Source: a virus. Taken from it: a DNA stretch of 16,923 bases. Both the position numbers and the translations under genes were made by a program. Shown here piece by piece: positions 147 to 16,923 of the stretch (the stretch's first letter is position 1; every line of letters starts with the position of its first letter). The notes under the pieces are model-generated. The model was not told the origin of the DNA. It was given only the letters and a program-made list of their open reading frames with translations, and searched no databases. The stretch is from the IMG/VR virus record IMGVR_UViG_3300045988_141692. One strand, given 5' to 3'.

Positions 147-353
147 ATGACATTAAGAAACTTATATGTATTGAACTTAGATTGGGATGCAGACACTTGT
201 GTTATGATTTCAGATATGAATGGTTGTGTTATATTCAATTCAGATATTTCATATGCTGTTAAGAAGTTTGGTGATATCGAAGTTAAGCATTTTCGTGGTA
301 ATGAAGTAACAATTAAATGTTTATTTGATGGTGAAGAATTGGAGGTATTATAA
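147..353 (+). CDS. Hypothetical left-arm early protein (68 aa)
   Basis: This is the first ORF after the ITR-L promoter and SD. The ATG at 147 sits 7 nt from GAGGG. I recognise no motif. Confidence 0.6.
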   Translation: MTLRNLYVLNLDWDADTCVMISDMNGCVIFNSDISYAVKKFGDIEVKHFRGNEVTIKCLFDGEELEVL

Positions 354-547
354 TGAACAAAGAATATTCAATATTCGAAGCACTTTTAATCGAAGCAGAA
401 TACGCACAGAATATGAAAGCACAAACATTATTACATCAAGTGTTTGGAAAAGCTGAAATGGCTTTTAAGTTAGGAGCGATAACTTCTTCACAGTTTTTAA
501 AGCTTAATACAGAGACTCTTGATTTTCTTTATTCTAATTGTCAATAA
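353..547 (+). CDS. Hypothetical left-arm early protein (64 aa, predicted helical)
   Basis: Its start overlaps the upstream stop (TAATG at 351..355), which suggests translational coupling. I recognise no motif. Confidence 0.55.
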   Translation: MNKEYSIFEALLIEAEYAQNMKAQTLLHQVFGKAEMAFKLGAITSSQFLKLNTETLDFLYSNCQ

Positions 548-608
548 TTTAATTCCTTGTAGGTGGGATGGCTAAACCTTCAATCCAGCACAAAGGAGGT
601 GAGCACAC

Positions 609-761
609 ATGATAGTATTTAACTATGTTCTAATAGTACTCTCCCTAGCACTCTTCATTTACTCCGGAGATACGAACATACTAATCGCAGTAGGTCTGTT
701 CTCAATCGCGCAATCGATAACAAACCTCAAAGTTAACATCCACAAGAAATCACGCTATTAG
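609..761 (+). CDS. Small two-TM membrane protein (50 aa), absent from the ORF track
   Basis: ATG at 609 is preceded by AAAGGAGGTGA (GGAGG at 595..599, 9-nt spacing). My translation is MIVFNYVLIVLSLALFIYSGDTNILIAVGLFSIAQSITNLKVNIHKKSRY: two hydrophobic segments and a basic tail, with TAG at 759..761. Confidence 0.6.
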   Translation: MIVFNYVLIVLSLALFIYSGDTNILIAVGLFSIAQSITNLKVNIHKKSRY

Positions 762-5598: not shown

Positions 5599-6330
5599 CT
5601 AAAATGTAAAAATTTTGAGAAACAGTCCACGACTTACTTCTCTAACCATTTCCCCAATCACATCCGGTAATGTGTCTCGGTTTCGCTTGAGTACTTCTCC
5701 TTGCGGAATAGTAAAGCCTTTATGGGTAACCGTTTCTGTTAAGTCTCGTTTACGTTCTCCCTTATCAGAGGAATTTGAATCACTACTTCCGCTACCATTG
5801 TCTGTTGTTATGTTAGTAGCGTAGTCCTCATTGCCTAAAGCGCTTTCCGGGGTGTCCTCATACACATTCTTGTTGGTGTTTGTTGCGCTAGTATGCATGT
5901 TTCCAGAGTTTTCTGAATTTTCTCCTTCATTAACTGTGCGGCTAGTCTCGTCGGAGAATGAATTGAGCAAGTCGAAATCTTTTTGCATAATTTCGTACAA
6001 TTTATTGTATCGCCATATCACACGTCTTATATTACCATTAAAACGTAGTAAAAACATGGTAACATTTTCGTACTCAATTTCGCGCATCAAATTATCAGTA
6101 CAAAATAACTGGAAAAAATCATCCTTCATTTGTTGTGAAAAGAACTGAATATTTTTGTCAATCATGCTGTTTTCGGCTGTTGCTATTCGTTCTCCCACAG
6201 GAACATCATACTCTGGTTTAAAGAAAGGGTATCTTCCTTCTTCAGCGTTTTGTTTAGCAAGAGCTTCGGGGTTTTTGTCCTGTGAATAATGATAAATTAT
6301 GTCACGTAATGTTGTTGTATAATATGCCAT
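5599..6330 (-). CDS. Lower collar protein candidate (gp11 position, 243 aa)
   Basis: It lies directly downstream of the connector gene with a TAATG overlap, and its size and position fit the phi29 lower collar. A Ser/Asn/Gly-rich internal segment is present. I recognise no independent motif. Confidence 0.5.
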   Translation of the reverse strand: MAYYTTTLRDIIYHYSQDKNPEALAKQNAEEGRYPFFKPEYDVPVGERIATAENSMIDKNIQFFSQQMKDDFFQLFCTDNLMREIEYENVTMFLLRFNGNIRRVIWRYNKLYEIMQKDFDLLNSFSDETSRTVNEGENSENSGNMHTSATNTNKNVYEDTPESALGNEDYATNITTDNGSGSSDSNSSDKGERKRDLTETVTHKGFTIPQGEVLKRNRDTLPDVIGEMVREVSRGLFLKIFTF

Positions 6331-7289
6331 TATTCGTCACCCTCTTTCTCTTCTGTTTCTCCTGAGCCATATCCTTCTCGATCAGATGCATCACTAGGCT
6401 GTAACGTTCCATCCACTTTAGCAAGTGCATTTGCATCAAATTCTACACTTATGTTAGTACCAAACATTCTATTCACCTGTTCGGCTCCAATTTCTCGGCT
6501 TCTTAAAGCGTTGTTCCGGAAACCCATAATGTGCTCATTGTTGGCGTTTCCCTCGTCCACAGTAAGGTGCTCAGCCTTGTAAACAGAAATGTTGTTATAC
6601 CCCAACAATGAAAGATATTCTCCAAGAATCGCCATTTTTGTTTTGTCAAGTGGCTCAGTAATGATAGGTGTGCTTAAGTCTAACACTTCTGGTTTATCTG
6701 TTTCAGAAATAAACTCGTCTGAATCATCATAAAAAATGTACGGTAAACCGAGTTGCGTATTATTTATCATTTGTCTCATTGAATTCTCATTGTCCTTATT
6801 CGTACGAATAATTTTAGGCCTCATTTGCAAGGTAATGTTTACATCTTTTGCGAGTTCAACTCTTGCCAGCTTTTGTGCATAATATTCGATGATTGGGACA
6901 AACGGAGAATAGGTAGCGTCGTTAAAAACTAAAACGCTGTTATCCTCGTATCGAACTGTGTGATAACCATTTGCCGTATTTACATGACGGATTCTCGGAA
7001 TGTTATAAATGTTAAATTTACCTGTGTTTGCGGAAGGTAGGGCAACCATGCCGATAACCGGGTTTTCGAAAAACAGACAATTTCCTTTCATAATTAGCGT
7101 CTGCTCAATTACCCTTTCGGAAACGGTGTCAGGCAATCCATTCCACTTAAAACGGCTAATCGCTAAAACATAAAGATATCTAAGATAATTCCAGTACGTC
7201 CAATCACGATTTACTCCGCTCATTATTTTTTGGTCATATCCAACACCGCATAATCCAAGTGGGTCACGGCTTATACTGCGTCTCCCCAT
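6330..7289 (-). CDS. Head-tail connector / upper collar (portal) protein, gp10-like
   Basis: 319 aa, versus ~309 aa for phi29 gp10. The block ISRFKWNGLPDTV...FFENPVIG parallels the phi29 gp10 FEWENLPPTI...FYKDPVI block as I recall it. The C-terminal tail is acidic, as in gp10. RBS AAAGGAGGG. Confidence 0.8.
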   Translation of the reverse strand: MGRRSISRDPLGLCGVGYDQKIMSGVNRDWTYWNYLRYLYVLAISRFKWNGLPDTVSERVIEQTLIMKGNCLFFENPVIGMVALPSANTGKFNIYNIPRIRHVNTANGYHTVRYEDNSVLVFNDATYSPFVPIIEYYAQKLARVELAKDVNITLQMRPKIIRTNKDNENSMRQMINNTQLGLPYIFYDDSDEFISETDKPEVLDLSTPIITEPLDKTKMAILGEYLSLLGYNNISVYKAEHLTVDEGNANNEHIMGFRNNALRSREIGAEQVNRMFGTNISVEFDANALAKVDGTLQPSDASDREGYGSGETEEKEGDE

Positions 7290-7304: not shown

Positions 7305-8990
7305 CTATTCATTATTTCCATAAGTTCCCACGTTTTCATAATCGTGCCAAAACGTCACACCGTTTAAAAACATGTTTCTTATGGTAGCTAAATGTTCATT
7401 CGGTATATTACCATAAATGTTAACGGTATTACACCTGACATAGTTGAATCTAGGTCGATTGTTTAAATACGGAATTCCGATGCGATTAGACTTATACCCA
7501 TATGCATCAAAATAGCTTTGCAACTTAGAACGGAATTCAGGTTTAACAGTATACGCGCGAATGATAACATCCAGAGAACCATTTACTGCCATTAATACCG
7601 CTTCACTACCTCCCGAAGAATTTCCAGCTAGTCCTATAGCACTTTGCATCATATCGATTTTTTGTCTGTCTCTCTCAGAGGATTGCTGTTCCCTAACTGC
7701 GCTCTGAAACGTATTCGCAATAGCGTTAACAATTCCGCTTGCGTCACCCTCGTTCGAAACGGCCTGACCAATTCCACTTGCTAAACCAGAGATAGCTCCT
7801 ATAACAATATCGGTGCGATTCTGGCTGTGCACTAAGTTGTTAGTACTAACTGCCTGTGATTTCGACAAAATAAATTGATTATTTTGTACAGGAAATGATG
7901 GAAAACCTGAAAAACTGGTTCCAGCGTTTAGTAAATCGCTGTTATTAATGTTTCCATCATAATCGTTTGCGGATGCTAACAGTGTGCCATCTGGTATCGG
8001 GCTTCCTGTAATAGAAATTGATAACGTTGCTCCGTTTATTAATTCCGGCTTTAAAACAACCTTGTTACCCGATGGCATTACTATCTCAAAAAAGCTGTAC
8101 GGATAACAATACAATTTTTTCTGCGTGTACGCTGGCAACATGGACTGCCAGTTAATATCAATCACACGTTTTCTAGGGCTTGTATTTCCGTAACACACAC
8201 CGATTCGAAATCCCATGGCACTAGAAAATATCCCTTGTTTAGGTACAAAGTCTGCGGGAAAAGGAAACACAGAAATGATAGATTGAGCTACCCACGCATA
8301 ATCAGATAAACTTGCGAATATATCGCGCAAACTTGATGTGTTTTCGTCCACGAAATAAATACCCGCCGCAGATGGTAGCCCGTTTATTTCACAACCGGGT
8401 GCTCCTTTTATAATCACTTCGTCCTCTGTTCCACCAGAATTTAAAAGGTCTGCTGTGGAAATTATTAAATATGTGTTAACCTCGGATAATGAATCAAGCG
8501 TGTAAACGCTTTCCTGATTAATAACATAATCTCCATAATCAACCGGTTCCACGACTGTATTATAGTTATAAGCATAACCACGCGGTGCATGTTCACGCGC
8601 AATGTCGCAATCTCGTATTACTACGTTATTAAAATACGTCTGCCAAGCATCTAAGTGAAAGCGTATCAAAGATGTTTTGGGATTAACATACTCAATTGCA
8701 TCAACAAAACAGTACATCCAAATGCCGTTATATTGTGTGTTTCTGAATCGCATATAGTTAGATGCAAGTAACGTTTCTGCATTGTAGTTAACCTGTAGTG
8801 CTCTGTGTTCACGTATGTATTTAAACGTAAAATTGCCCGCTATCACTTTACCGTCAAAATAACTATCTCTTGCCGACTCAGACGCAAAATAAAGTTGACG
8901 ATTTTCCGCTACGGGAATATACCCTAAGAGCTGGAACACGTTTGATTGCATTGCTCTTGTTTCTACATCTGTCATAAATTCCATGTTCAT
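7305..8990 (-). CDS. Tail knob / distal tube protein, gp9-like
   Basis: 561 aa, versus ~599 aa for phi29 gp9. NYMRFRNTQYNGIWMYCFVDAIEYVNPKTSLIRFHLDAWQTYF parallels the conserved N-terminal gp9 block (YIMFQNADYGNKWFYAFV...VLQTWMF) as I recall it. The gene follows the capsid gene, as in phi29. Confidence 0.75.
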   Translation of the reverse strand: MNMEFMTDVETRAMQSNVFQLLGYIPVAENRQLYFASESARDSYFDGKVIAGNFTFKYIREHRALQVNYNAETLLASNYMRFRNTQYNGIWMYCFVDAIEYVNPKTSLIRFHLDAWQTYFNNVVIRDCDIAREHAPRGYAYNYNTVVEPVDYGDYVINQESVYTLDSLSEVNTYLIISTADLLNSGGTEDEVIIKGAPGCEINGLPSAAGIYFVDENTSSLRDIFASLSDYAWVAQSIISVFPFPADFVPKQGIFSSAMGFRIGVCYGNTSPRKRVIDINWQSMLPAYTQKKLYCYPYSFFEIVMPSGNKVVLKPELINGATLSISITGSPIPDGTLLASANDYDGNINNSDLLNAGTSFSGFPSFPVQNNQFILSKSQAVSTNNLVHSQNRTDIVIGAISGLASGIGQAVSNEGDASGIVNAIANTFQSAVREQQSSERDRQKIDMMQSAIGLAGNSSGGSEAVLMAVNGSLDVIIRAYTVKPEFRSKLQSYFDAYGYKSNRIGIPYLNNRPRFNYVRCNTVNIYGNIPNEHLATIRNMFLNGVTFWHDYENVGTYGNNE

Positions 8991-9005: not shown

Positions 9006-10289
9006 TCAGCCACCTGCCGCAGTAACAGCTTTCTCCCCATGAACGGAGTTATCCAAATACGGCGTAGCGTAAATAGTAAGATTTCCTTTTTCCTCGGCTC
9101 CTACGCTCAGAACTCCCTGATCATTCATACGTGTACTAGAGGACGTGTTTCCGAGAACAGACCACATAACCGCCTGAGAGGGGTTGTTGGTTCCGGTTAC
9201 TGTGGCTGTGTATACAGAGCTTCCGCCCGGAGTGTAAGTATCTGCACCCGCAATCGTTACGCTGGTAACAGTCGGAAGAGCGGCAGTCGTAATCGCAACG
9301 GCATTGTGAAACGGAGAGAGGAAGTAAGTCTGCCATACGTGCAACCAATAATTCCAAGACAATTTTTCACGGTCATAAAAATCATTTGCTTCGAACAGGT
9401 TGTCGTAGATGTTTAAGAATTCCTCGTCCGCAATGACAGCTATGATTTCGGGATGATTCGGAATCTCCGGAATCAGAGTAATTCTGCCAAGGAATCGAGC
9501 CTCGTCCATATGGAACGCATAAGCAAGAGCCTGTACGCTGGTAACTGCATCGGCCTTCGGAGTAATAAAAAGACGCTGATCTTCCAGAGACGTTGTATTC
9601 ATAACCCCTGCCGCGTTCATAGAACGAGTAGGAAAACGTAAGGTATTGGATGCAATTCTAAGAGCGGTAAGAAAACTTTTTGCTGTTGTTTCGTCCGTTG
9701 GCTCGTCGGCGTGAACCAATTTAAACTTTCCGCTGTCTATATAATCCACAAACAGCGCAAGTGTGTATGCAAATTCGGCAACATCATTACTGGTGTACAT
9801 TCCGTTTATTACACGGTCAACCAAAGATGCAACGCCTTCTTCGGAGTAAAACGCTGCCTGTAAATCGCGTCTCCAAATAGTCTGTTTAAAATAGTCCTCA
9901 CGATTACGGTTGTGGTACGCTACTTTAAGGTCAGGTTTTTCTGTTTTCAGCATCGCCCACGGGTCAGTATCCTCACCATATGCGTGCGCTGTTGCGATAT
10001 CTACCCAGATATCCTCAATCGTATATCCGTACGGAATCATACCACGCTTCGCAAAACCGAATGGATTTGTAAAATACATTTTGTTCACTTTAGTGAAGGA
10101 AACCTTATTCACCAAAAAGTCAAAGAACCGGTTCATAACAGGTTCATAGTTCATAAGCGTACCGCCGAACTCGCGAATATTAGTACTAACTGGGTCAGGT
10201 AAAAGCCCCTCATATTCTGTACCGTCAAGACTTGCTCTAAAATCTGCTAACAGTGTCTTAACATTTGTTACTGCATTTTTTACTGCCAT
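9006..10289 (-). CDS. Major capsid protein with a C-terminal Ig-like (Big_2-type) domain
   Basis: 427 aa, directly after the scaffold-like gene, with strong RBS GGAGGG. The C-terminal ~90 aa (VTSVTIAGADTYTPGGSSVYTATVTGTNNPSQAVMWSV...LTIYATP) look like a bacterial Ig-like group 2 domain, as found in phi29 gp8. Confidence 0.8.
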   Translation of the reverse strand: MAVKNAVTNVKTLLADFRASLDGTEYEGLLPDPVSTNIREFGGTLMNYEPVMNRFFDFLVNKVSFTKVNKMYFTNPFGFAKRGMIPYGYTIEDIWVDIATAHAYGEDTDPWAMLKTEKPDLKVAYHNRNREDYFKQTIWRRDLQAAFYSEEGVASLVDRVINGMYTSNDVAEFAYTLALFVDYIDSGKFKLVHADEPTDETTAKSFLTALRIASNTLRFPTRSMNAAGVMNTTSLEDQRLFITPKADAVTSVQALAYAFHMDEARFLGRITLIPEIPNHPEIIAVIADEEFLNIYDNLFEANDFYDREKLSWNYWLHVWQTYFLSPFHNAVAITTAALPTVTSVTIAGADTYTPGGSSVYTATVTGTNNPSQAVMWSVLGNTSSSTRMNDQGVLSVGAEEKGNLTIYATPYLDNSVHGEKAVTAAGG

Positions 10290-10303: not shown

Positions 10304-10579
10304 TTACAGGTTTAAATAGTCCTCGATTTTAATTTTCGGGACTTCTTTCTTTTCTTCATTCTGCACAATATCTGCAATGACTTCTTCCTCAGCAACACTG
10401 GGTTTTGTAAAATCATTGATGTACTGTGCACGGATTCTGTCGCGGTCACGTTCCACTTCACTGTAATACGCCGCCGCTTCATTAATTGCCGAACCGATAA
10501 AAGTTTCGTCATAGACTTCGCCTTCTTCCAGTTCTGTACCAGCTATCCGTCTTAACATCCTCAAAAGCTTCTCATTCAT
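10304..10579 (-). CDS. Scaffolding protein candidate (91 aa, acidic, helical)
   Basis: I place the start at the internal ATG (10579, MNEKLL...), which has AAGGAG 8 nt upstream. The ORF-track start at 10660 has no RBS and runs through a structured non-coding region. The gene lies just upstream of the capsid gene, in the phi29 gp7 position and with a similar size. Confidence 0.5.
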   Translation of the reverse strand: MNEKLLRMLRRIAGTELEEGEVYDETFIGSAINEAAAYYSEVERDRDRIRAQYINDFTKPSVAEEEVIADIVQNEEKKEVPKIKIEDYLNL

Positions 10580-10614
10580 GCGTCTTTCTCCTTCCCTTAT
10601 TTCGTCAATCCCAC

Positions 10615-10730
10615 ATTTAAAGAAATAGGAGCGTCTAAAAATCGAAATGCGGGATTGCAAGCCGGTATGGGACTGCCAGCGTATTACCGCTTTCCCTCAG
10701 CAGTCTACCAAAATTTAAACACTCCTACTC
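10615..10730 (-). ncRNA. Candidate structured RNA (pRNA-like) or structured late-operon leader
   Basis: It starts ~7 nt after the -10 of the promoter at 10737..10765. An 11-bp closing helix pairs 10730..10720 with 10633..10623. An internal bulged arm pairs 10709..10700 with 10676..10664 and is capped by a hairpin at 10691..10678. A U-rich tract follows the closing helix. No plausible ORF with an RBS is present. Confidence 0.35.
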
Positions 10731-10736
10731 AATATA

Positions 10737-10765
10737 ATTGTATCATAAGTACGACAATATGTCAA
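10737..10765 (-). promoter_or_regulatory. Internal promoter at the ATPase stop: -35 TTGACA, 17-nt spacer, extended -10 TGaTACAAT
   Basis: On the - strand, TTGACA is at 10765..10760, the spacer at 10759..10743 (17 nt) and TACAAT at 10742..10737. The TG of the extended -10 is supplied by the ATPase TGA stop codon (10745..10743). Confidence 0.7.
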
Positions 10766-11798
10766 GCATTTCTTTTTTGATATCCACATTTTCAAACCAC
10801 GCTTTTCCGGCATTATAATAACGCTTGAATGACATAGCTGTCTCTGAAAGCTGGGACAGTAAATAGGTATCCTCAAAATGGGAGTTCGCATCAAACGCAA
10901 ATTTAAGTTTGAACTTTTCATTTGCTTTGCTGGAAAAATAAAGACAGTCCTTATTTATCCAAACCCCTATGTTTTCTGCGGTTCCTAAAACACCGTCGTT
11001 TATAGTTATTGTGCAGTAGTAATATTTATCTTTGGTTTCCAATTTGCGAACAAACGAATAGGTGTCAAGCATGTATTTATTTGACGATGCAAATTGTACG
11101 TAATTTGATTCACTAAAAGCGCGGTTGAAACCACTGGAAAGTAGGGCTTCTTTTGCGGCCTGATTCTCCGTTACTTCCAGCACCCAACCATCACCGCGCA
11201 GAAATTTTGTGTCAGATTCCAAACGCTTCTGAATTCCCAAAGCCTTGTAATAAGGATTCAAGATGGAAACGTTATTTCCGCATAAAATATTACGCACATA
11301 TCTAGTCTGTTTTCCAAACCCTCTAGCAATTGAATTCTGGATGCTAATAAATTTAGAAATTTCGTTCTCACAATAATGTTCCGTTTCCGACTGAAACTCG
11401 TCCATGAATCTGTTTTCGACTTCTATAAAGCGTGACGAAACTTTCTTTATTGTGTCAGCGTTATTAAGAAAGGTGGCGAAACCACATTCCGTATCATTCA
11501 GATACAGAACTTTGTAAGCCCCCCTCATTTCAGACTTTGCGTGCATTTCAAAATCAGGTGGGTAAAGCTGTGCAATATCACTAAAAAATGAATTCTCACA
11601 GTCAGACAACTCGTAGTTGTATCTGTATTGTAGCATAAATTTACGCTTATTATCGTTCAAAAAATCTTCAAAAATGGTACGTTTTGCTGAGAAAGTTTTT
11701 CCGGCTGTACGATTGCCTGTTACAATAAATAATTCTGGTGTTTTCCCGTTTAGGTCTTTCTTACTCAGCAATCTGGATATATCATAGTACTTACCCAT
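10743..11798 (-). CDS. DNA encapsidation (packaging) ATPase, gp16-like
   Basis: 351 aa, versus 332 aa for phi29 gp16. Walker A is GNRTAGKT near residue 28, after an N-terminal Y.ISRLLS segment laid out like gp16. A Walker-B-like NRFMDEF is present. RBS AAGGAGG. Confidence 0.8.
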   Translation of the reverse strand: MGKYYDISRLLSKKDLNGKTPELFIVTGNRTAGKTFSAKRTIFEDFLNDNKRKFMLQYRYNYELSDCENSFFSDIAQLYPPDFEMHAKSEMRGAYKVLYLNDTECGFATFLNNADTIKKVSSRFIEVENRFMDEFQSETEHYCENEISKFISIQNSIARGFGKQTRYVRNILCGNNVSILNPYYKALGIQKRLESDTKFLRGDGWVLEVTENQAAKEALLSSGFNRAFSESNYVQFASSNKYMLDTYSFVRKLETKDKYYYCTITINDGVLGTAENIGVWINKDCLYFSSKANEKFKLKFAFDANSHFEDTYLLSQLSETAMSFKRYYNAGKAWFENVDIKKEMLDILSYL

Positions 11799-11810: not shown

Positions 11811-11840
11811 ATATTAAAATAGGGACGTTTTCACGCCCCT
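11811..11840 (-). terminator. Putative intrinsic terminator or attenuator between the replication genes and the packaging ATPase
   Basis: The - strand reads AGGGGCG-UGAAAA-CGUCCCU (7 bp including one G.U) followed by AUUUUAAUAU. It sits immediately upstream of the ATPase RBS. Confidence 0.45.
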
Positions 11841-11869
11841 AATAATTGCAGATATATAAAAATGTGTTG

Positions 11870-12217
11870 TTAGATAGCCTTAAGCTGTAAAAATTCTCTG
11901 TCTGATTTCGATGTGCCCGACGCAATCTGAACTCTGATAGGATGTTCTACACTAGGTTCACCGAATATGTCAACCAGATTCTGAACACAATCGTTTACCG
12001 TAGGGGACATAGTTGTGTACATTTCTCCTTCTGCCGTAAACAGTACGGTGCATACTCCCAGTTCCGGTTCCTTTGTGTTCTTTCTCTCGGTTTCGTACTG
12101 TACGATATCAGTTACAGCAAACTCATCGCCCACAAAGTCCTGCATCTGTTTACCGTTTACAGTACGTGCATTGTAAAGCATCATTTTGTCGGTTGTTGTG
12201 TTAATTAAATCTCTCAT
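11870..12217 (-). CDS. Putative ssDNA-binding / replication accessory protein (115 aa)
   Basis: It lies downstream of the polymerase, functionally analogous to phi29 p5. The central and C-terminal pattern CTVLFTAEGEMYTTMSPTV...LVDIFGEP...IRVQIASGTSKSDREFLQL resembles small phage SSBs of the lactococcal p2 ORF34 type as I recall them. This is unverified. Confidence 0.4.
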   Translation of the reverse strand: MRDLINTTTDKMMLYNARTVNGKQMQDFVGDEFAVTDIVQYETERKNTKEPELGVCTVLFTAEGEMYTTMSPTVNDCVQNLVDIFGEPSVEHPIRVQIASGTSKSDREFLQLKAI

Positions 12218-12626: not shown

Positions 12627-12656
12627 ATTATACCATGGTTTACTGTATTTTGTCAA
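12627..12656 (-). promoter_or_regulatory. Internal promoter in the polymerase 3' end: -35 TTGACA, 18-nt spacer, extended -10 TGgTATAAT
   Basis: On the - strand, TTGACA is at 12656..12651 (inside the last polymerase codons, VLDKIQ), the spacer at 12650..12633 and TATAAT at 12632..12627, preceded by TGg. Confidence 0.65.
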
Positions 12657-14517
12657 GCACTTTACCAAAAGATTTAGGTGGCTTGTACGCTTTTTGCTTA
12701 TAAAGTGTGAAATCTGCATCCACCAAAATAATCCCTCCCTTCACTTGCATCTGCTTTAATTGACTATTTAACGTTAATCCATAATCAAAACATGATATAG
12801 GTCTGGTAGCAAGCAAATACTGTTTGGTGCGGTCTTGCATGCCAGCGCACTTAATATCCCAGTGAGAAGTTACTTTTTTATGGTTTTCCTTCCGGATAAA
12901 TTCGCAGTAGGTTTTTTGACGTATGAACTTTGCACGACTCCATTCAGATTCTAATTTCCAGCATAACAATTTTGAGGAATGCTCCACAATTTTGTTTGGT
13001 TCACATTTAAACATGTGCAAGCTATCGGTGTCTGCATATATAAAGTTATCGTAATTTGCCTGTGCGTGTGTGATTGTAAAATAACGTGCATAAGATGTTA
13101 CAAAACTGCCTTGCGCTATGGAAAGCGTTTTCTTATTGTGCTCTTCATGCAAAATAAACCGGAGCAATCCATCCTCGTCTAAATATGGTTCTTGATAACT
13201 GCTATCATCATTTGTGGCAAGTTTTCCATAACAATTGTTTAAGAAAAGCTTGGCTTCTTCTCGCGCCCCTCCTTCGGAGTTCATTTTCATAGTCATATAC
13301 TTGTCTATGTACTCGTCGAACAAGCCCGCTACTGCATTAAAATAACATCCACTTAAAATCTCAATTTCGTGTATATCATAATGCTCCAAAAATAGTTTAT
13401 AATCAAGACTTGTTAACGTAAATTCTGCGTATGCCAATTGCAGTATCCCATCTGCATCGTAATAATACGCATATTTTTTACCACCAAACTGAACGTCCGA
13501 AGAGGTTAGCCATTCTGTGGACTTGTACATAAGACTATCTTTAATCTGCATGCTAGGCAAATGATTAGGCTTTATGGTAAACCTTGCTTTCAGTCTTACA
13601 AAAAATACTCTATTTTCTTGCAAGGCTTCTTCAGGTATTTTATTGCCTGTCCAAAATGTAGGCTTACCTACTGGATAAATGTTTCCACTTTTGGAATGCA
13701 TAACGGAGGGATAAAGGCTGTTTACATCATATGTCATGCCATCTGTGTCTATCCACTTATTCATATATTTTGGATTGCAATAACACCAACCCCCACGATA
13801 AGAGCGGCGTATATATGCATCTGCGTTTGGATACTTATAAACACTTTCGTCCAGCACAAACGCTTTAAGGTCTGGATACATCGCATTCCATTGCTCTTTA
13901 TCAAAACACTTCTTATATTCAGCTATGCAATTACTTCCTATTGTTAAACGAGTGTTGCCAGAATCCAGCATAAATTCAAGAGCTTCTTTAAGTACCAAAA
14001 CATCGTTTATTATGTACTGCATTTCTTCGGGTTTTATTAAACCGCCAGCATGGCGTTCCCCTTTATACTCCATTTCAAGTTTACGATGTTTCGTATTAAA
14101 AGCTTTTCCCATTCGTGCTAGTGTCATTGGCATAAGTTTTGCGCTATCTCGTATTTCGATTACTGTCCGTCCTGTACAGACAGTAATAGAATACCAACGA
14201 TTCTGACCTGAAATAATCGCATCGAATTCACCCTTATAAAGCTTTTCGTAAGGTTTCTCTCTATGGTGAAATTTATAACCATTTTCCATGAGCGTATTCA
14301 ACAGAAAGTTTCCATCAAATTTTACATTATGGAAATAGACAATCACTTTTTCTTCGCAAAGGTTGTGAAAAAACTTAATGAAATCATGAATATTATTATA
14401 CACTGTAACGAAATCTGAATACAGTTCTGCAATAGCCGCACTCCATACTTCCGTACTCGTTTGTTGTTTTGTATCATTATCTACAGTTGTCTCAAAGTCG
14501 CACGAAAATATTCGCAT
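12640..14517 (-). CDS. Protein-primed family-B DNA polymerase (phi29-type)
   Basis: All hallmark motifs are present and close to phi29: ExoI CDFETT, ExoII HNVKFDGNFLL, ExoIII YIINDVLVL, motif A YDVNSLYPS, motif B KLFLNNCYGK, motif C IYADTDS, and KxY as RQKTYCEF. At 625 aa the size fits protein-primed PolBs, which carry TPR insertions. Confidence 0.95.
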   Translation of the reverse strand: MRIFSCDFETTVDNDTKQQTSTEVWSAAIAELYSDFVTVYNNIHDFIKFFHNLCEEKVIVYFHNVKFDGNFLLNTLMENGYKFHHREKPYEKLYKGEFDAIISGQNRWYSITVCTGRTVIEIRDSAKLMPMTLARMGKAFNTKHRKLEMEYKGERHAGGLIKPEEMQYIINDVLVLKEALEFMLDSGNTRLTIGSNCIAEYKKCFDKEQWNAMYPDLKAFVLDESVYKYPNADAYIRRSYRGGWCYCNPKYMNKWIDTDGMTYDVNSLYPSVMHSKSGNIYPVGKPTFWTGNKIPEEALQENRVFFVRLKARFTIKPNHLPSMQIKDSLMYKSTEWLTSSDVQFGGKKYAYYYDADGILQLAYAEFTLTSLDYKLFLEHYDIHEIEILSGCYFNAVAGLFDEYIDKYMTMKMNSEGGAREEAKLFLNNCYGKLATNDDSSYQEPYLDEDGLLRFILHEEHNKKTLSIAQGSFVTSYARYFTITHAQANYDNFIYADTDSLHMFKCEPNKIVEHSSKLLCWKLESEWSRAKFIRQKTYCEFIRKENHKKVTSHWDIKCAGMQDRTKQYLLATRPISCFDYGLTLNSQLKQMQVKGGIILVDADFTLYKQKAYKPPKSFGKVLDKIQ

Positions 14518-15362: not shown

Positions 15363-15390
15363 TTGTTCACCTCCTTTACCGCTATACTCT

Positions 15391-15419
15391 ATTATATCAC
15401 ATTTCAGGACATTTGTAAA
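15391..15419 (-). promoter_or_regulatory. Replication-operon promoter: -35 TTTACA, 17-nt spacer, extended -10 TGaTATAAT
   Basis: On the - strand, TTTACA is at 15419..15414, the 17-nt spacer at 15413..15397 and TATAAT at 15396..15391, with TG at 15399..15398. The GTGATATAAT core is identical to that of the ITR promoter. Confidence 0.7.
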
Positions 15420-15453
15420 TAAAAATACATCTGTTCTATAATGTGTAGAACAG
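15417..15453 (-). terminator. Intrinsic terminator ending the right-arm early transcription unit
   Basis: The - strand reads CUGUUCUA-CACAUUA-UAGAACAG (8-bp stem, 15453..15431) followed by AUGUAUUUUUAUUU. It lies directly downstream of the 36-aa ORF and abuts the next promoter. Confidence 0.65.
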
Positions 15454-15467
15454 GTGTAACAATGGAC

Positions 15468-15578
15468 TTAAAAATTGTCTTTAATATACTTGATAACTTG
15501 TGCGGTTATGGAACAACCGATTAGATAGACTGTAAGAGATATTATTGCGGTTAAGACGATTATTAAGATTTCTATCAT
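15468..15578 (-). CDS. Single-TM micro-protein (36 aa), absent from the ORF track
   Basis: The ATG at 15578 overlaps the upstream TGA (ATGA). GGAGG lies 8 nt upstream. My translation is MIEILIIVLTAIISLTVYLIGCSITAQVIKYIKDNF, with TAA at 15470..15468. Confidence 0.5.
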   Translation of the reverse strand: MIEILIIVLTAIISLTVYLIGCSITAQVIKYIKDNF

Positions 15579-16615: not shown

Positions 16616-16782
16616 TTCTGTTTCCTCCATTCTTTATATTCCTGAGTTGTCATGGACTTATATCCACCTTCTACCTTCACAGCAACGCGTTCAGGATGAT
16701 AATGTTTAGCCCAATACCTTGATGCGTATAATCTCTTGTCCCAGTCGTAACCTTTAAATTCTCCATATTTACTGAACATCAT
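16612..16782 (-). CDS. Small basic early protein, paralog A (about 55 aa)
   Basis: This is the first gene behind the ITR-R promoter and SD. The start is probably one of the ATG ATG pair at 16782/16779, the latter 5 nt after the GAGGG SD. The ORF-track GTG at 16803 lies upstream of the SD. The product is MMFSKYGEFKGYDWDKRLYASRYWAKHYHPERVAVKVEGGYKSMTTQEYKEWRKQK. Confidence 0.6.
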   Translation of the reverse strand: MMFSKYGEFKGYDWDKRLYASRYWAKHYHPERVAVKVEGGYKSMTTQEYKEWRKQK

Positions 16783-16923
16783 TTCCCTCTCTTTCTGATT
16801 CACTATATCTTTGTTACTATAGTAATTATATCACAGTGCACTTGAAAATGCAAGCTTTTTTAAAAAATTTGTGTGAGTGAATTTTGGTTTTCCAAAGTGC
16901 ATGTTTTGGGGCCGCGACCCCCC
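16778..16923. repeat. Right inverted terminal repeat (ITR-R), 146 bp
   Basis: Exact reverse complement of 1..146, checked base by base from the terminus inward. Confidence 0.95.
16814..16867 (-). promoter_or_regulatory. ITR-R early promoter (mirror copy of the ITR-L promoter)
   Basis: Identical sequence by ITR symmetry: -35 at 16848..16853, -10 at 16825..16830, palindrome at 16814..16825. It reads inward into the - strand early genes. Confidence 0.75.

Follow-up and report, generated by a model that had tools for sequence, protein, structure and literature searches.

A conserved pRNA-like RNA beside the packaging ATPase gene of phi29-like gut phages, most likely a new family of packaging RNA

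To our knowledge, the packaging RNA (pRNA) of phage phi29 is the only RNA known to form part of a viral DNA-packaging motor, and it has also become a workhorse of RNA nanotechnology. The phages DLc1, BC-5, Baseball_field and vB_BceP_LY3 are Bacillus phages. These four are named in a 2025 survey with Infernal that added 12 further pRNAs (PMC12670572), and recent accounts confine pRNA to phi29 and its relatives among the Bacillus phages (PMC11476376, PMC12670572; 2024-2025), as did an earlier prediction for the locus treated here, made from the DNA letters alone. In phi29, pRNAs are linked into a ring by a contact between the CE loop and the D loop, and the complementarity of these loops covaries among Bacillus-phage pRNAs (PMC12670572); the contact within the ring is also described in PMC2241910 and PMC4201828. 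Literature searches found no report of a pRNA outside Bacillus phages, gut and clostridial phages included, apart from the suggestions for an ampullavirus and for phage Cp-1. The present analysis concerns a predicted RNA of ~108 nt in a phi29-like phage genome of 16,923 bases from human gut metagenomes (IMG/VR record IMGVR_UViG_3300045988_141692; this whole stretch of DNA is referred to below as the window), where it occupies the gap between the gene for the packaging ATPase and a small scaffold-like gene. The RNA fails the sequence-family test for pRNA and shows every architectural pRNA feature that could be tested. Judged by this architecture and by its genomic context, it most likely represents a new pRNA-type family of packaging RNAs that is unrelated in sequence to the known one.

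Fold and conservation of the RNA in the window's clade

It is essentially certain that a conserved, strand-specific, structured RNA gene lies beside the ATPase gene. From the stop codon of the ATPase gene (10743) to the ATG of the scaffold gene (10579) there is a gap of 163 nt, as the original prediction had stated, and the promoter that it placed there is present (TTGACA, a 17-nt spacer and TGaTACAAT; the coordinates of all features are collected in Table 1). Its description of the gap as the largest non-coding one did not hold, since the region 15363..15574 (212 nt, with no open reading frame (ORF) of at least 50 amino acids (aa)) exceeds it. The promoter, a strong one of the sigma-70 type, scores 11/12 plus an extended -10 element and is among the three best sites in the window. 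A promoter scan of the window as a whole found no more sites than in shuffled sequences, so the case for this promoter rests on the quality of the site and on its conservation in relatives: the -35 hexamer is kept as TTGACA in L027, L028, L101 and L104, although their ATPases share only ~50% identity with that of the window, and the -10 element of the relatives (TGATATAAT or TATTATAAT) lies at the same distance. The helix that closes the RNA (the A helix) begins 4-7 nt past the -10 element in all five sequence types of the window's clade (clade 1); in the window the predicted start, G10730, is 7 nt past it.

Folding of the segment 10618..10730 (113 nt) gives a minimum free energy (MFE) of -40.5 kcal/mol (z = -3.9), a value matched by 1 of 200 shuffles, whereas the whole gap (153 nt) reaches only z = -1.6. 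The proposed structure therefore stands for the core of ~110 nt, which contains the signal and the helices originally drawn, and does not stand out when the gap is folded in full. A covariance model (CM) for the window's clade, R1, matches the window at 10612..10732 with 88.7 bits. The pairing of the 5' and 3' ends is present, although with a length of 17 bp rather than the 11 bp first suggested. Inside it, the MFE fold contains the inner arm as predicted (the C helix, GGUA+GACUGCU / GGCAGUC-CCA-UACC), together with its hairpin cap (the E hairpin) and the bulge that carries GGGA. This GGGA (10696..10693) is complementary to a UCCC at 10654..10651, as had been pointed out, and the loop that holds the latter belongs to a second, weak hairpin (the D hairpin). 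Another UCCC occurs at 10669-10672, where the C helix has its 3' strand and bulge (GUCCCAUACC); this copy and that of the D loop could be rivals for the GGGA bulge. Members of the pRNA class are RNAs of ~117-120 nt with paired ends and a three-way junction; here the paired ends enclose a core of 108 nt with predicted termini, and the junction presents the C helix, CE bulge, E hairpin and D hairpin in the same order. The U-rich tail that follows the closing helix is possibly a leaky terminator or a processing site; a simple terminator scan of the window called no terminator at this position, and every clade-1 relative has a U-rich tail after the helix.

The evidence that the fold exceeds chance comes mainly from the relatives, through covariation and near-perfect conservation. 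In the first 17 relatives the gap is 98-100% identical, which makes them too similar to be informative for covariation. Among 20 close relatives, the 108-nt core is 100% identical in 19, the single change turning a C-G pair into U-G, while the ATPase gene and the gene for the major capsid protein (MCP) average 91% and 90% nucleotide identity in the same 20 genomes; the RNA is thus under tighter constraint than the neighbouring genes. Further members of clade 1 with ATPases ~50% identical to that of the window are L027/L098, L028/L102, L101/L109/L110 and L104. Clade-1 relatives retain the order of ATPase gene, gap of ~150-180 nt, ORF of 79-91 aa and Phi29_MCP gene, and five clade-1 sequence types retain the promoter across the ATPase stop, the length of the RNA and its fold. 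RNAalifold, applied to six clade-1 sequences, recovers 28 pairs with compensatory changes in 16. In these six, the end helix proposed at the outset has compensatory changes in 14 of its 17 pairs, with one cell broken, and the second hairpin likewise covaries in relatives with ~50% identical ATPases. The bulged arm does so as well according to per-sequence folds, which were used here as the register shifts by one column between types and a column count is impossible: the C arm is present in every sequence type with a different sequence each time (GACUGC/GCAGUC, CAUGUGAC/GUCACAUG, GGCC/GGCC, CCGGC/GUCGG and GGUC/GACC). Across clade 1, G-U pairs number 42 versus 2 for A-C, an excess which indicates that the structure belongs to the transcript of this strand.

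A wider family with the same topology and a covarying loop pairing

A second group of phages (clade 2), with ATPases 33-46% identical to that of the window and with the ATPase gene usually the last of its operon, carries an element of 104-123 nt (most 110-118) directly after the ATPase stop, usually followed by a strong terminator. At most of these loci the RNA starts no more than ~10 nt from the ATPase stop, and single-sequence MFE folds give the same two-branch junction in 35 of 40 cases. A second model, R2, was built from 16 clade-2 sequences and matches 67 viral-contig loci and 61 metagenome loci, two lists that overlap in sequence and in which gut and rumen are both represented. The combination of MAFFT and RNAalifold failed to recover the clade-2 fold because insertions and deletions shift the C and D helices; the structure was set by hand for the alignable helices and the sequences were realigned with the CM. 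Over 79 distinct clade-2 sequences, 87.2% of cells pair versus 33-44% with slid partners, the covariation score is 0.627 versus 0.166 in shuffled data (reached by none of 500 shuffles), and G-U pairs again exceed A-C (196 versus 56). The termini are near-invariant (5'-GGUAUC...GAUAUA-3'; alignment A8, columns 2-8 / 192-197), and six pairs into the end helix the 3' strand has a bulge of 3-4 nt (UUAA-like; A8 columns 188-191). This bulge recalls the functionally essential A-helix bulge of phi29 and could, by analogy, be a binding site for the ATPase. A cultured phage of Clostridium symbiosum, CS229P1 (OP172772), carries a clade-2 RNA at 10552..10666 (47.8 bits; L189:3560-3674) in an unannotated gap after a gene annotated 'DNA packaging protein'. 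Clostridium phage HM2 (L190, LT600745; ATPase 37% identical) has no R2 match within 2.5 kb of its ATPase gene, and may carry another RNA type or none.

In clade 2, the D loop can pair with nucleotides in the 3' part of the bulge. These pairs were absent from the model used for aligning the sequences, and the helix that they form is 76.7% paired versus 19-45% with slid partners, with 86 double-change cells versus 29 in shuffled data, the observed count being reached by 0 of 500 shuffles. A count that is independent of register, in which bulge and loop were taken as column windows of the CM alignment, finds a perfect Watson-Crick match of at least 4 nt in 76% of 78 clade-2 sequences, compared with 12 ± 3.5% (maximum 23% in 2000 permutations) when partners are permuted. 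There are 23 distinct pairing sequences (e.g., UAGCA/UGCUA, UGUCA/UGACA, AGGC/GCCU, UCCA/UGGA and AAGC/GCUU), and CS229P1 has CUGUA/UACAG. Bulge and loop that change in step while staying complementary are, by analogy with phi29, the signature of a CE-loop/D-loop contact. The complementarity of ~4 nt between these two loops that characterises the pRNA class is therefore present, its covariation being drawn from clade 2, with the window's clade invariant.

The window RNA and the clade-2 RNAs share their place directly after the ATPase stop, their topology and a similar length (106-116 nt in clade 1, mostly 110-118 in clade 2), and in both clades the kissing nucleotides lie in the 3' part of the bulge, beside the E helix. 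They differ in that the window RNA has neither the GGUAUC...GAUAUA termini nor the end-helix bulge, and in their transcription signals: clade-2 RNAs are usually without an obvious promoter and have a strong terminator right after them, whereas the window RNA has a consensus promoter directly upstream, no clear terminator and no second promoter. More distant relatives depart from the window in gene order, yet keep an RNA. Two further lineages, L107 and L105 (ATPases 44-46% identical), have the gene order of the window and different gap RNAs, which both R1 and R2 miss. In the L107 RNA (L107:5897-6064) the ends are paired, a hairpin of 4 bp with a 6-nt loop (CCCG-UUAGUU-CGGG) sits above a 5' bulge of 7 nt, and a second hairpin is present; one promoter precedes this RNA, and another, for the downstream genes, comes after it. 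The L105 RNA (L105:6329-6506) has a GC-rich end helix of 10 bp. In genomes of the L053 type (L053:3699-3811 on the minus strand, L051, L052, L054 and L116-L118) the RNA and the ATPase gene are encoded on opposite strands and share a strong terminator, which follows the RNA; a 186-aa ORF, its stop codon overlapped by a TTGACA-17-TAAATT site, precedes the RNA. In L029, L030 and L038 a small cysteine-rich ORF stands between the ATPase gene and the RNA, which is unchanged and lies ~210-250 nt past the ATPase stop. These layouts (L053, L107 and L029/L030/L038) indicate that the RNA behaves as a separate unit that stays beside the ATPase gene.

Function of the RNA and competing explanations

We put the probability that the RNA works as a pRNA, by analogy with phi29, at roughly 0.7. 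This reading, already put forward in the original prediction, draws on the genomic context, on the pRNA architecture with its covarying fold, on the RNAs of the same topology after other ATPase genes, on the covarying loop pairing in clade 2, and on the presence of no other pRNA in a genome with the gp16/gp10 pair. Transcription would begin near G10730, and some transcripts would end or be cut in the U-rich tail (~10610-10622), freeing an RNA of ~110-120 nt, while the remaining ones would read through as mRNA for scaffold, capsid and tail. Several copies of the RNA would join head to tail through intermolecular GGGA/UCCC pairing to form a ring, which would sit on the connector vertex of the empty prohead, with the end helix pointing outward and docking the gp16-type ATPase that pumps in the protein-primed linear genome.

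Several results weigh against a pRNA role. The GGGA directly 5' of the E helix and the UCCC in the D loop are invariant in 9/9 distinct clade-1 sequences, and within the window's clade their pairing therefore has no support from covariation; the pairing could, moreover, be an intramolecular pseudoknot rather than a contact between molecules. The D stem of the window is weak (3 bp + 2 bp), compared with 6-9 bp and covariation in relatives. R1 matches only clade 1, and R2 misses the window RNA even with filters off, just as it misses, with filters off too, the RNAs of L105 and L107, and misses phi29 pRNA; the link between the window's clade and clade 2 is thus one of topology and position, with no claim of sequence homology. 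The RNA does not belong to Phage_pRNA (RF00044), having no sequence or CM similarity to phi29 pRNA. A cmsearch with that model, as with the rest of Rfam 15, gave no match in the whole window at the gathering score and none in the gap or the whole window at E<=10, and no Rfam family matched at the gathering score in 20 related loci. As the phi29 control was found (145.4 bits, against a gathering score of 100 bits for Phage_pRNA), the window RNA is not a detectable sequence relative of phi29 pRNA, which fits the divergent RNA that had been envisaged. Lastly, no separate promoter is visible in the window between the RNA and the scaffold gene, so that a discrete small RNA is not guaranteed.

This last point bears on the simplest alternative, namely that the gap holds only a late promoter and a structured 5' leader of the scaffold/capsid mRNA, acting in cis by attenuation, by stabilising the mRNA or by controlling its translation, with no free RNA. 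The next genes of clade 1 are on the same strand, 43 nt past the helix, with no second promoter visible; a long helix with a U-rich tail looks like a leaky terminator; and a Shine-Dalgarno sequence and the ATG come directly after. The RNA promoter of the window probably also drives the scaffold/capsid operon, and the leader role may be true in addition to the RNA role, not instead of it. As a full account, a leader is improbable. It cannot explain the wider family, in which a strong terminator and genes of converging orientation lie behind the clade-2 RNA and the RNA can also form a unit of its own on the other strand, nor the genome of L107, whose gene order is the same and where a separate promoter behind the RNA serves the genes that follow. 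It likewise leaves unexplained the conserved bulge/loop complementarity, the constant size of ~110 nt with paired ends, and the fixed link to the ATPase gene rather than to the capsid genes.

An independent structured RNA of another role (regulatory or decoy, anti-defence, or an undescribed ribozyme), with the bulge/loop pairing serving as a stabilising intramolecular pseudoknot, would account for the same fold, because covariation proves structure and not function. Ribozymes such as hammerheads also combine a three-way junction with tertiary contacts between loops, and the RNA has no detectable homology to pRNA. Even so, this explanation seems unlikely, given that no Rfam family matches, ribozymes included, and that the RNA occurs in phi29-type genomes and, in almost all of those examined, lies directly beside the gene for the packaging ATPase. 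The order of its elements, the size of the E hairpin, the length and the paired termini all copy pRNA, and these genomes are otherwise without any pRNA despite having the gp16/gp10 pair that needs one in phi29. The extreme sequence conservation among close relatives would also suit an element acting as DNA (e.g., a signal for replication or packaging, or a site of recombination or protein binding). Such an element is very hard to reconcile with compensatory changes that keep the helices while the sequence diverges, with the excess of G-U over A-C in both clades (42 versus 2 and 196 versus 56), which only a single-stranded transcript of the strand in question would be expected to show, or with promoter-like sites at the 5' end of the RNA in clade 1, L053 and L107.

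With a pRNA role preferred for the window RNA, we also lean towards a broader proposal, in which RNA-dependent motors, far from being peculiar to Bacillus phages, would be the rule among the phi29-like phages whose hosts are anaerobic Firmicutes of gut and rumen, with at least two new, sequence-unrelated pRNA families encoded beside the ATPase gene and forming rings through more than 20 kissing-loop 'codes'. If this is true, pRNA-type RNA would turn from a curiosity into a general feature of the phi29-like phage group, and an RNA component would be ancestral to the whole phi29-type packaging machine; whether it was recruited once, recruited several times or is ancestral would become a testable question. 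Well over a hundred natural variants of ring-forming loop pairs and junctions would be available for structural and engineering work, with C. symbiosum and phage CS229P1 as a cultured anaerobe system, and the unannotated, highly conserved gap in many metagenomic phage genomes would be explained.

Genome setting and comparison with known RNAs

Perfect inverted terminal repeats of 146 nt at 1-146 and 16778-16923 identify the window as a complete linear genome of the protein-primed type, with repeats far longer than the 6 nt of phi29. Almost all genes are on the minus strand. The genome is that of a phi29-like podovirus that encodes both an ATPase of the gp16 type and a connector of the gp10 type, the setting that characterises the pRNA class: the ATPase is 23% identical to phi29 gp16 (E 1e-16), with relatives that match PF05894 (Podovirus_Gp16), and the connector is 28% identical to phi29 gp10. 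The N-terminus of the connector, MGRRSISRD, resembles the basic MARKRS of phi29 gp10, which we take to be a segment in contact with pRNA, and lends weak support. Among GenBank phages, a megablast search with the window found a single relative, an unannotated faecal contig.

Table 1. Positions in the window of the predicted RNA, its parts and promoter, and the surrounding genes
Feature	Position	Strand	Basis or remark
Core of the predicted ~108-nt pRNA-like RNA, G10730 to end of closing helix	10623..10730	-	folds and CM R1
A helix, 5' strand GAGUAGGAGUGUUUAAA	10714..10730	-	17 bp with 10623..10639
A helix, 3' strand UUUAGACGCUCCUAUUU	10623..10639	-	fold and covariation
C helix, 5' strand GGUA GACUGCU	10699..10709	-	pairs with 10664..10677
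C helix, 3' strand GGCAGUC-CCA-UACC, with 3-nt bulge	10664..10677	-	fold
5'-side bulge GAGGGAA (GGGA at 10693..10696), equivalent of the pRNA CE loop	10692..10698	-	fold
E hairpin AGCG-GUAAUA-CGCU, 4 bp and 6-nt loop	10678..10691	-	fold; stem invariant in clade 1
D hairpin GG..UGC-AAUCCC-GCA..UC, loop AAUCCC at 10651..10656	10644..10663	-	fold
U-rich tail CUUUAAAUGUGGG after the closing helix; UAUUUCUUUAAAU including the helix-ending UAUUU	10610..10622	-	sequence reading
-35 hexamer TTGACA of the RNA promoter	10760..10765	-	11/12 match for the whole promoter
Extended -10 TGaTACAAT, its TGA being the ATPase stop codon	10737..10745	-	promoter scan
Protein-primed type-B DNA polymerase	12640..14517		Pfam/PHROG
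phi29-type single-stranded DNA-binding protein (SSB)	11870..12217		Pfam/PHROG
Packaging ATPase (gp16 type), directly upstream of the RNA	10743..11798	-	PHROG 2150 'terminase', 1.3e-53
Small scaffold-like gene, 91 aa, first gene 3' of the RNA	10304..10579	-	ORF list and synteny
phi29-type MCP	9006..10289		Pfam/PHROG
Tail knob	7305..8990		Pfam/PHROG
Connector (gp10 type), expected docking partner of a pRNA	6330..7289	-	PF05352, 1.2e-40

Other signals were observed elsewhere in the window. A perfect 12/12 promoter with an extended -10 element (12627-12656, minus strand) overlaps the end of the DNA polymerase gene, and a clean terminator (11820-11841, minus strand) lies between the SSB and ATPase genes, leaving the ATPase gene without an obvious promoter of its own. 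The region 15363-15574 contains an 11/12 promoter on the minus strand (15419..15391), several sites on the plus strand that resemble promoters, and a hairpin that resembles a terminator; it is possibly an early control region. At the left end, three small ORFs (147-761, plus strand) form the sole plus-strand block. They run towards the genes of the minus strand, and a strong terminator lies behind them at 768-796.

The carriers of RF00044 are phi29, PZA, B103, M2/Nf, SF5, GA-1, DLc1 and other Bacillus phages. In the Rfam consensus, phi29 pRNA runs from the end helix through the C helix, a 9-nt 5' bulge, an E hairpin of 4 bp and 6 nt, the C return strand, a short linker and the D hairpin back to the end helix. 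All of these elements recur in the window RNA, in unchanged order, with an E hairpin of identical dimensions, a bulge of 7-8 nt and a core of 108 nt compared with 118 model positions for phi29. Shared with phi29 as well is a stretch of 4-5 nt in the bulge that is complementary to the loop of the other hairpin. Differences are found in the A helix, which has a CCA bulge in phi29 (PMC3479190) and has none in the window, and in the location of the gene, which in phi29 is at the left genome end behind the early promoter A1, whereas in the window it directly follows the ATPase gene, bearing out the different genomic position noted at the outset. Unlike phi29 pRNA, the RNA of the window's clade also points in the same direction as the capsid operon and is probably transcribed together with it, and the sole cultured carrier found, the clade-2 phage CS229P1, infects the gut anaerobe Clostridium symbiosum, whereas the phages with phi29 pRNA infect Bacillus.

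An intrinsic terminator or mRNA leader would likewise consist of a stable helix and a U-rich tract between two genes of the same strand. Here, however, the 'stem' encloses a conserved three-way junction of 70 nt whose arms and long-range pairing covary. Assignment to the terminator or leader class is further contradicted by the silence of the terminator scan and by the occurrence of RNAs of the same topology downstream of operons or on the opposite strand.

Two earlier proposals also place a pRNA outside the Bacillus group on the basis of predicted secondary structure. One, for Streptococcus phage Cp-1, is said to go back to Martin et al. in 1996, who reportedly described a putative pRNA. The other, cited in bioRxiv 10.1101/2020.07.06.188573, is a pRNA-like RNA for an archaeal ampullavirus. 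Both seemingly rest on folds of single sequences, whereas the fold and the pairing of the loops described here are backed by covariation over 79+9 distinct sequences.

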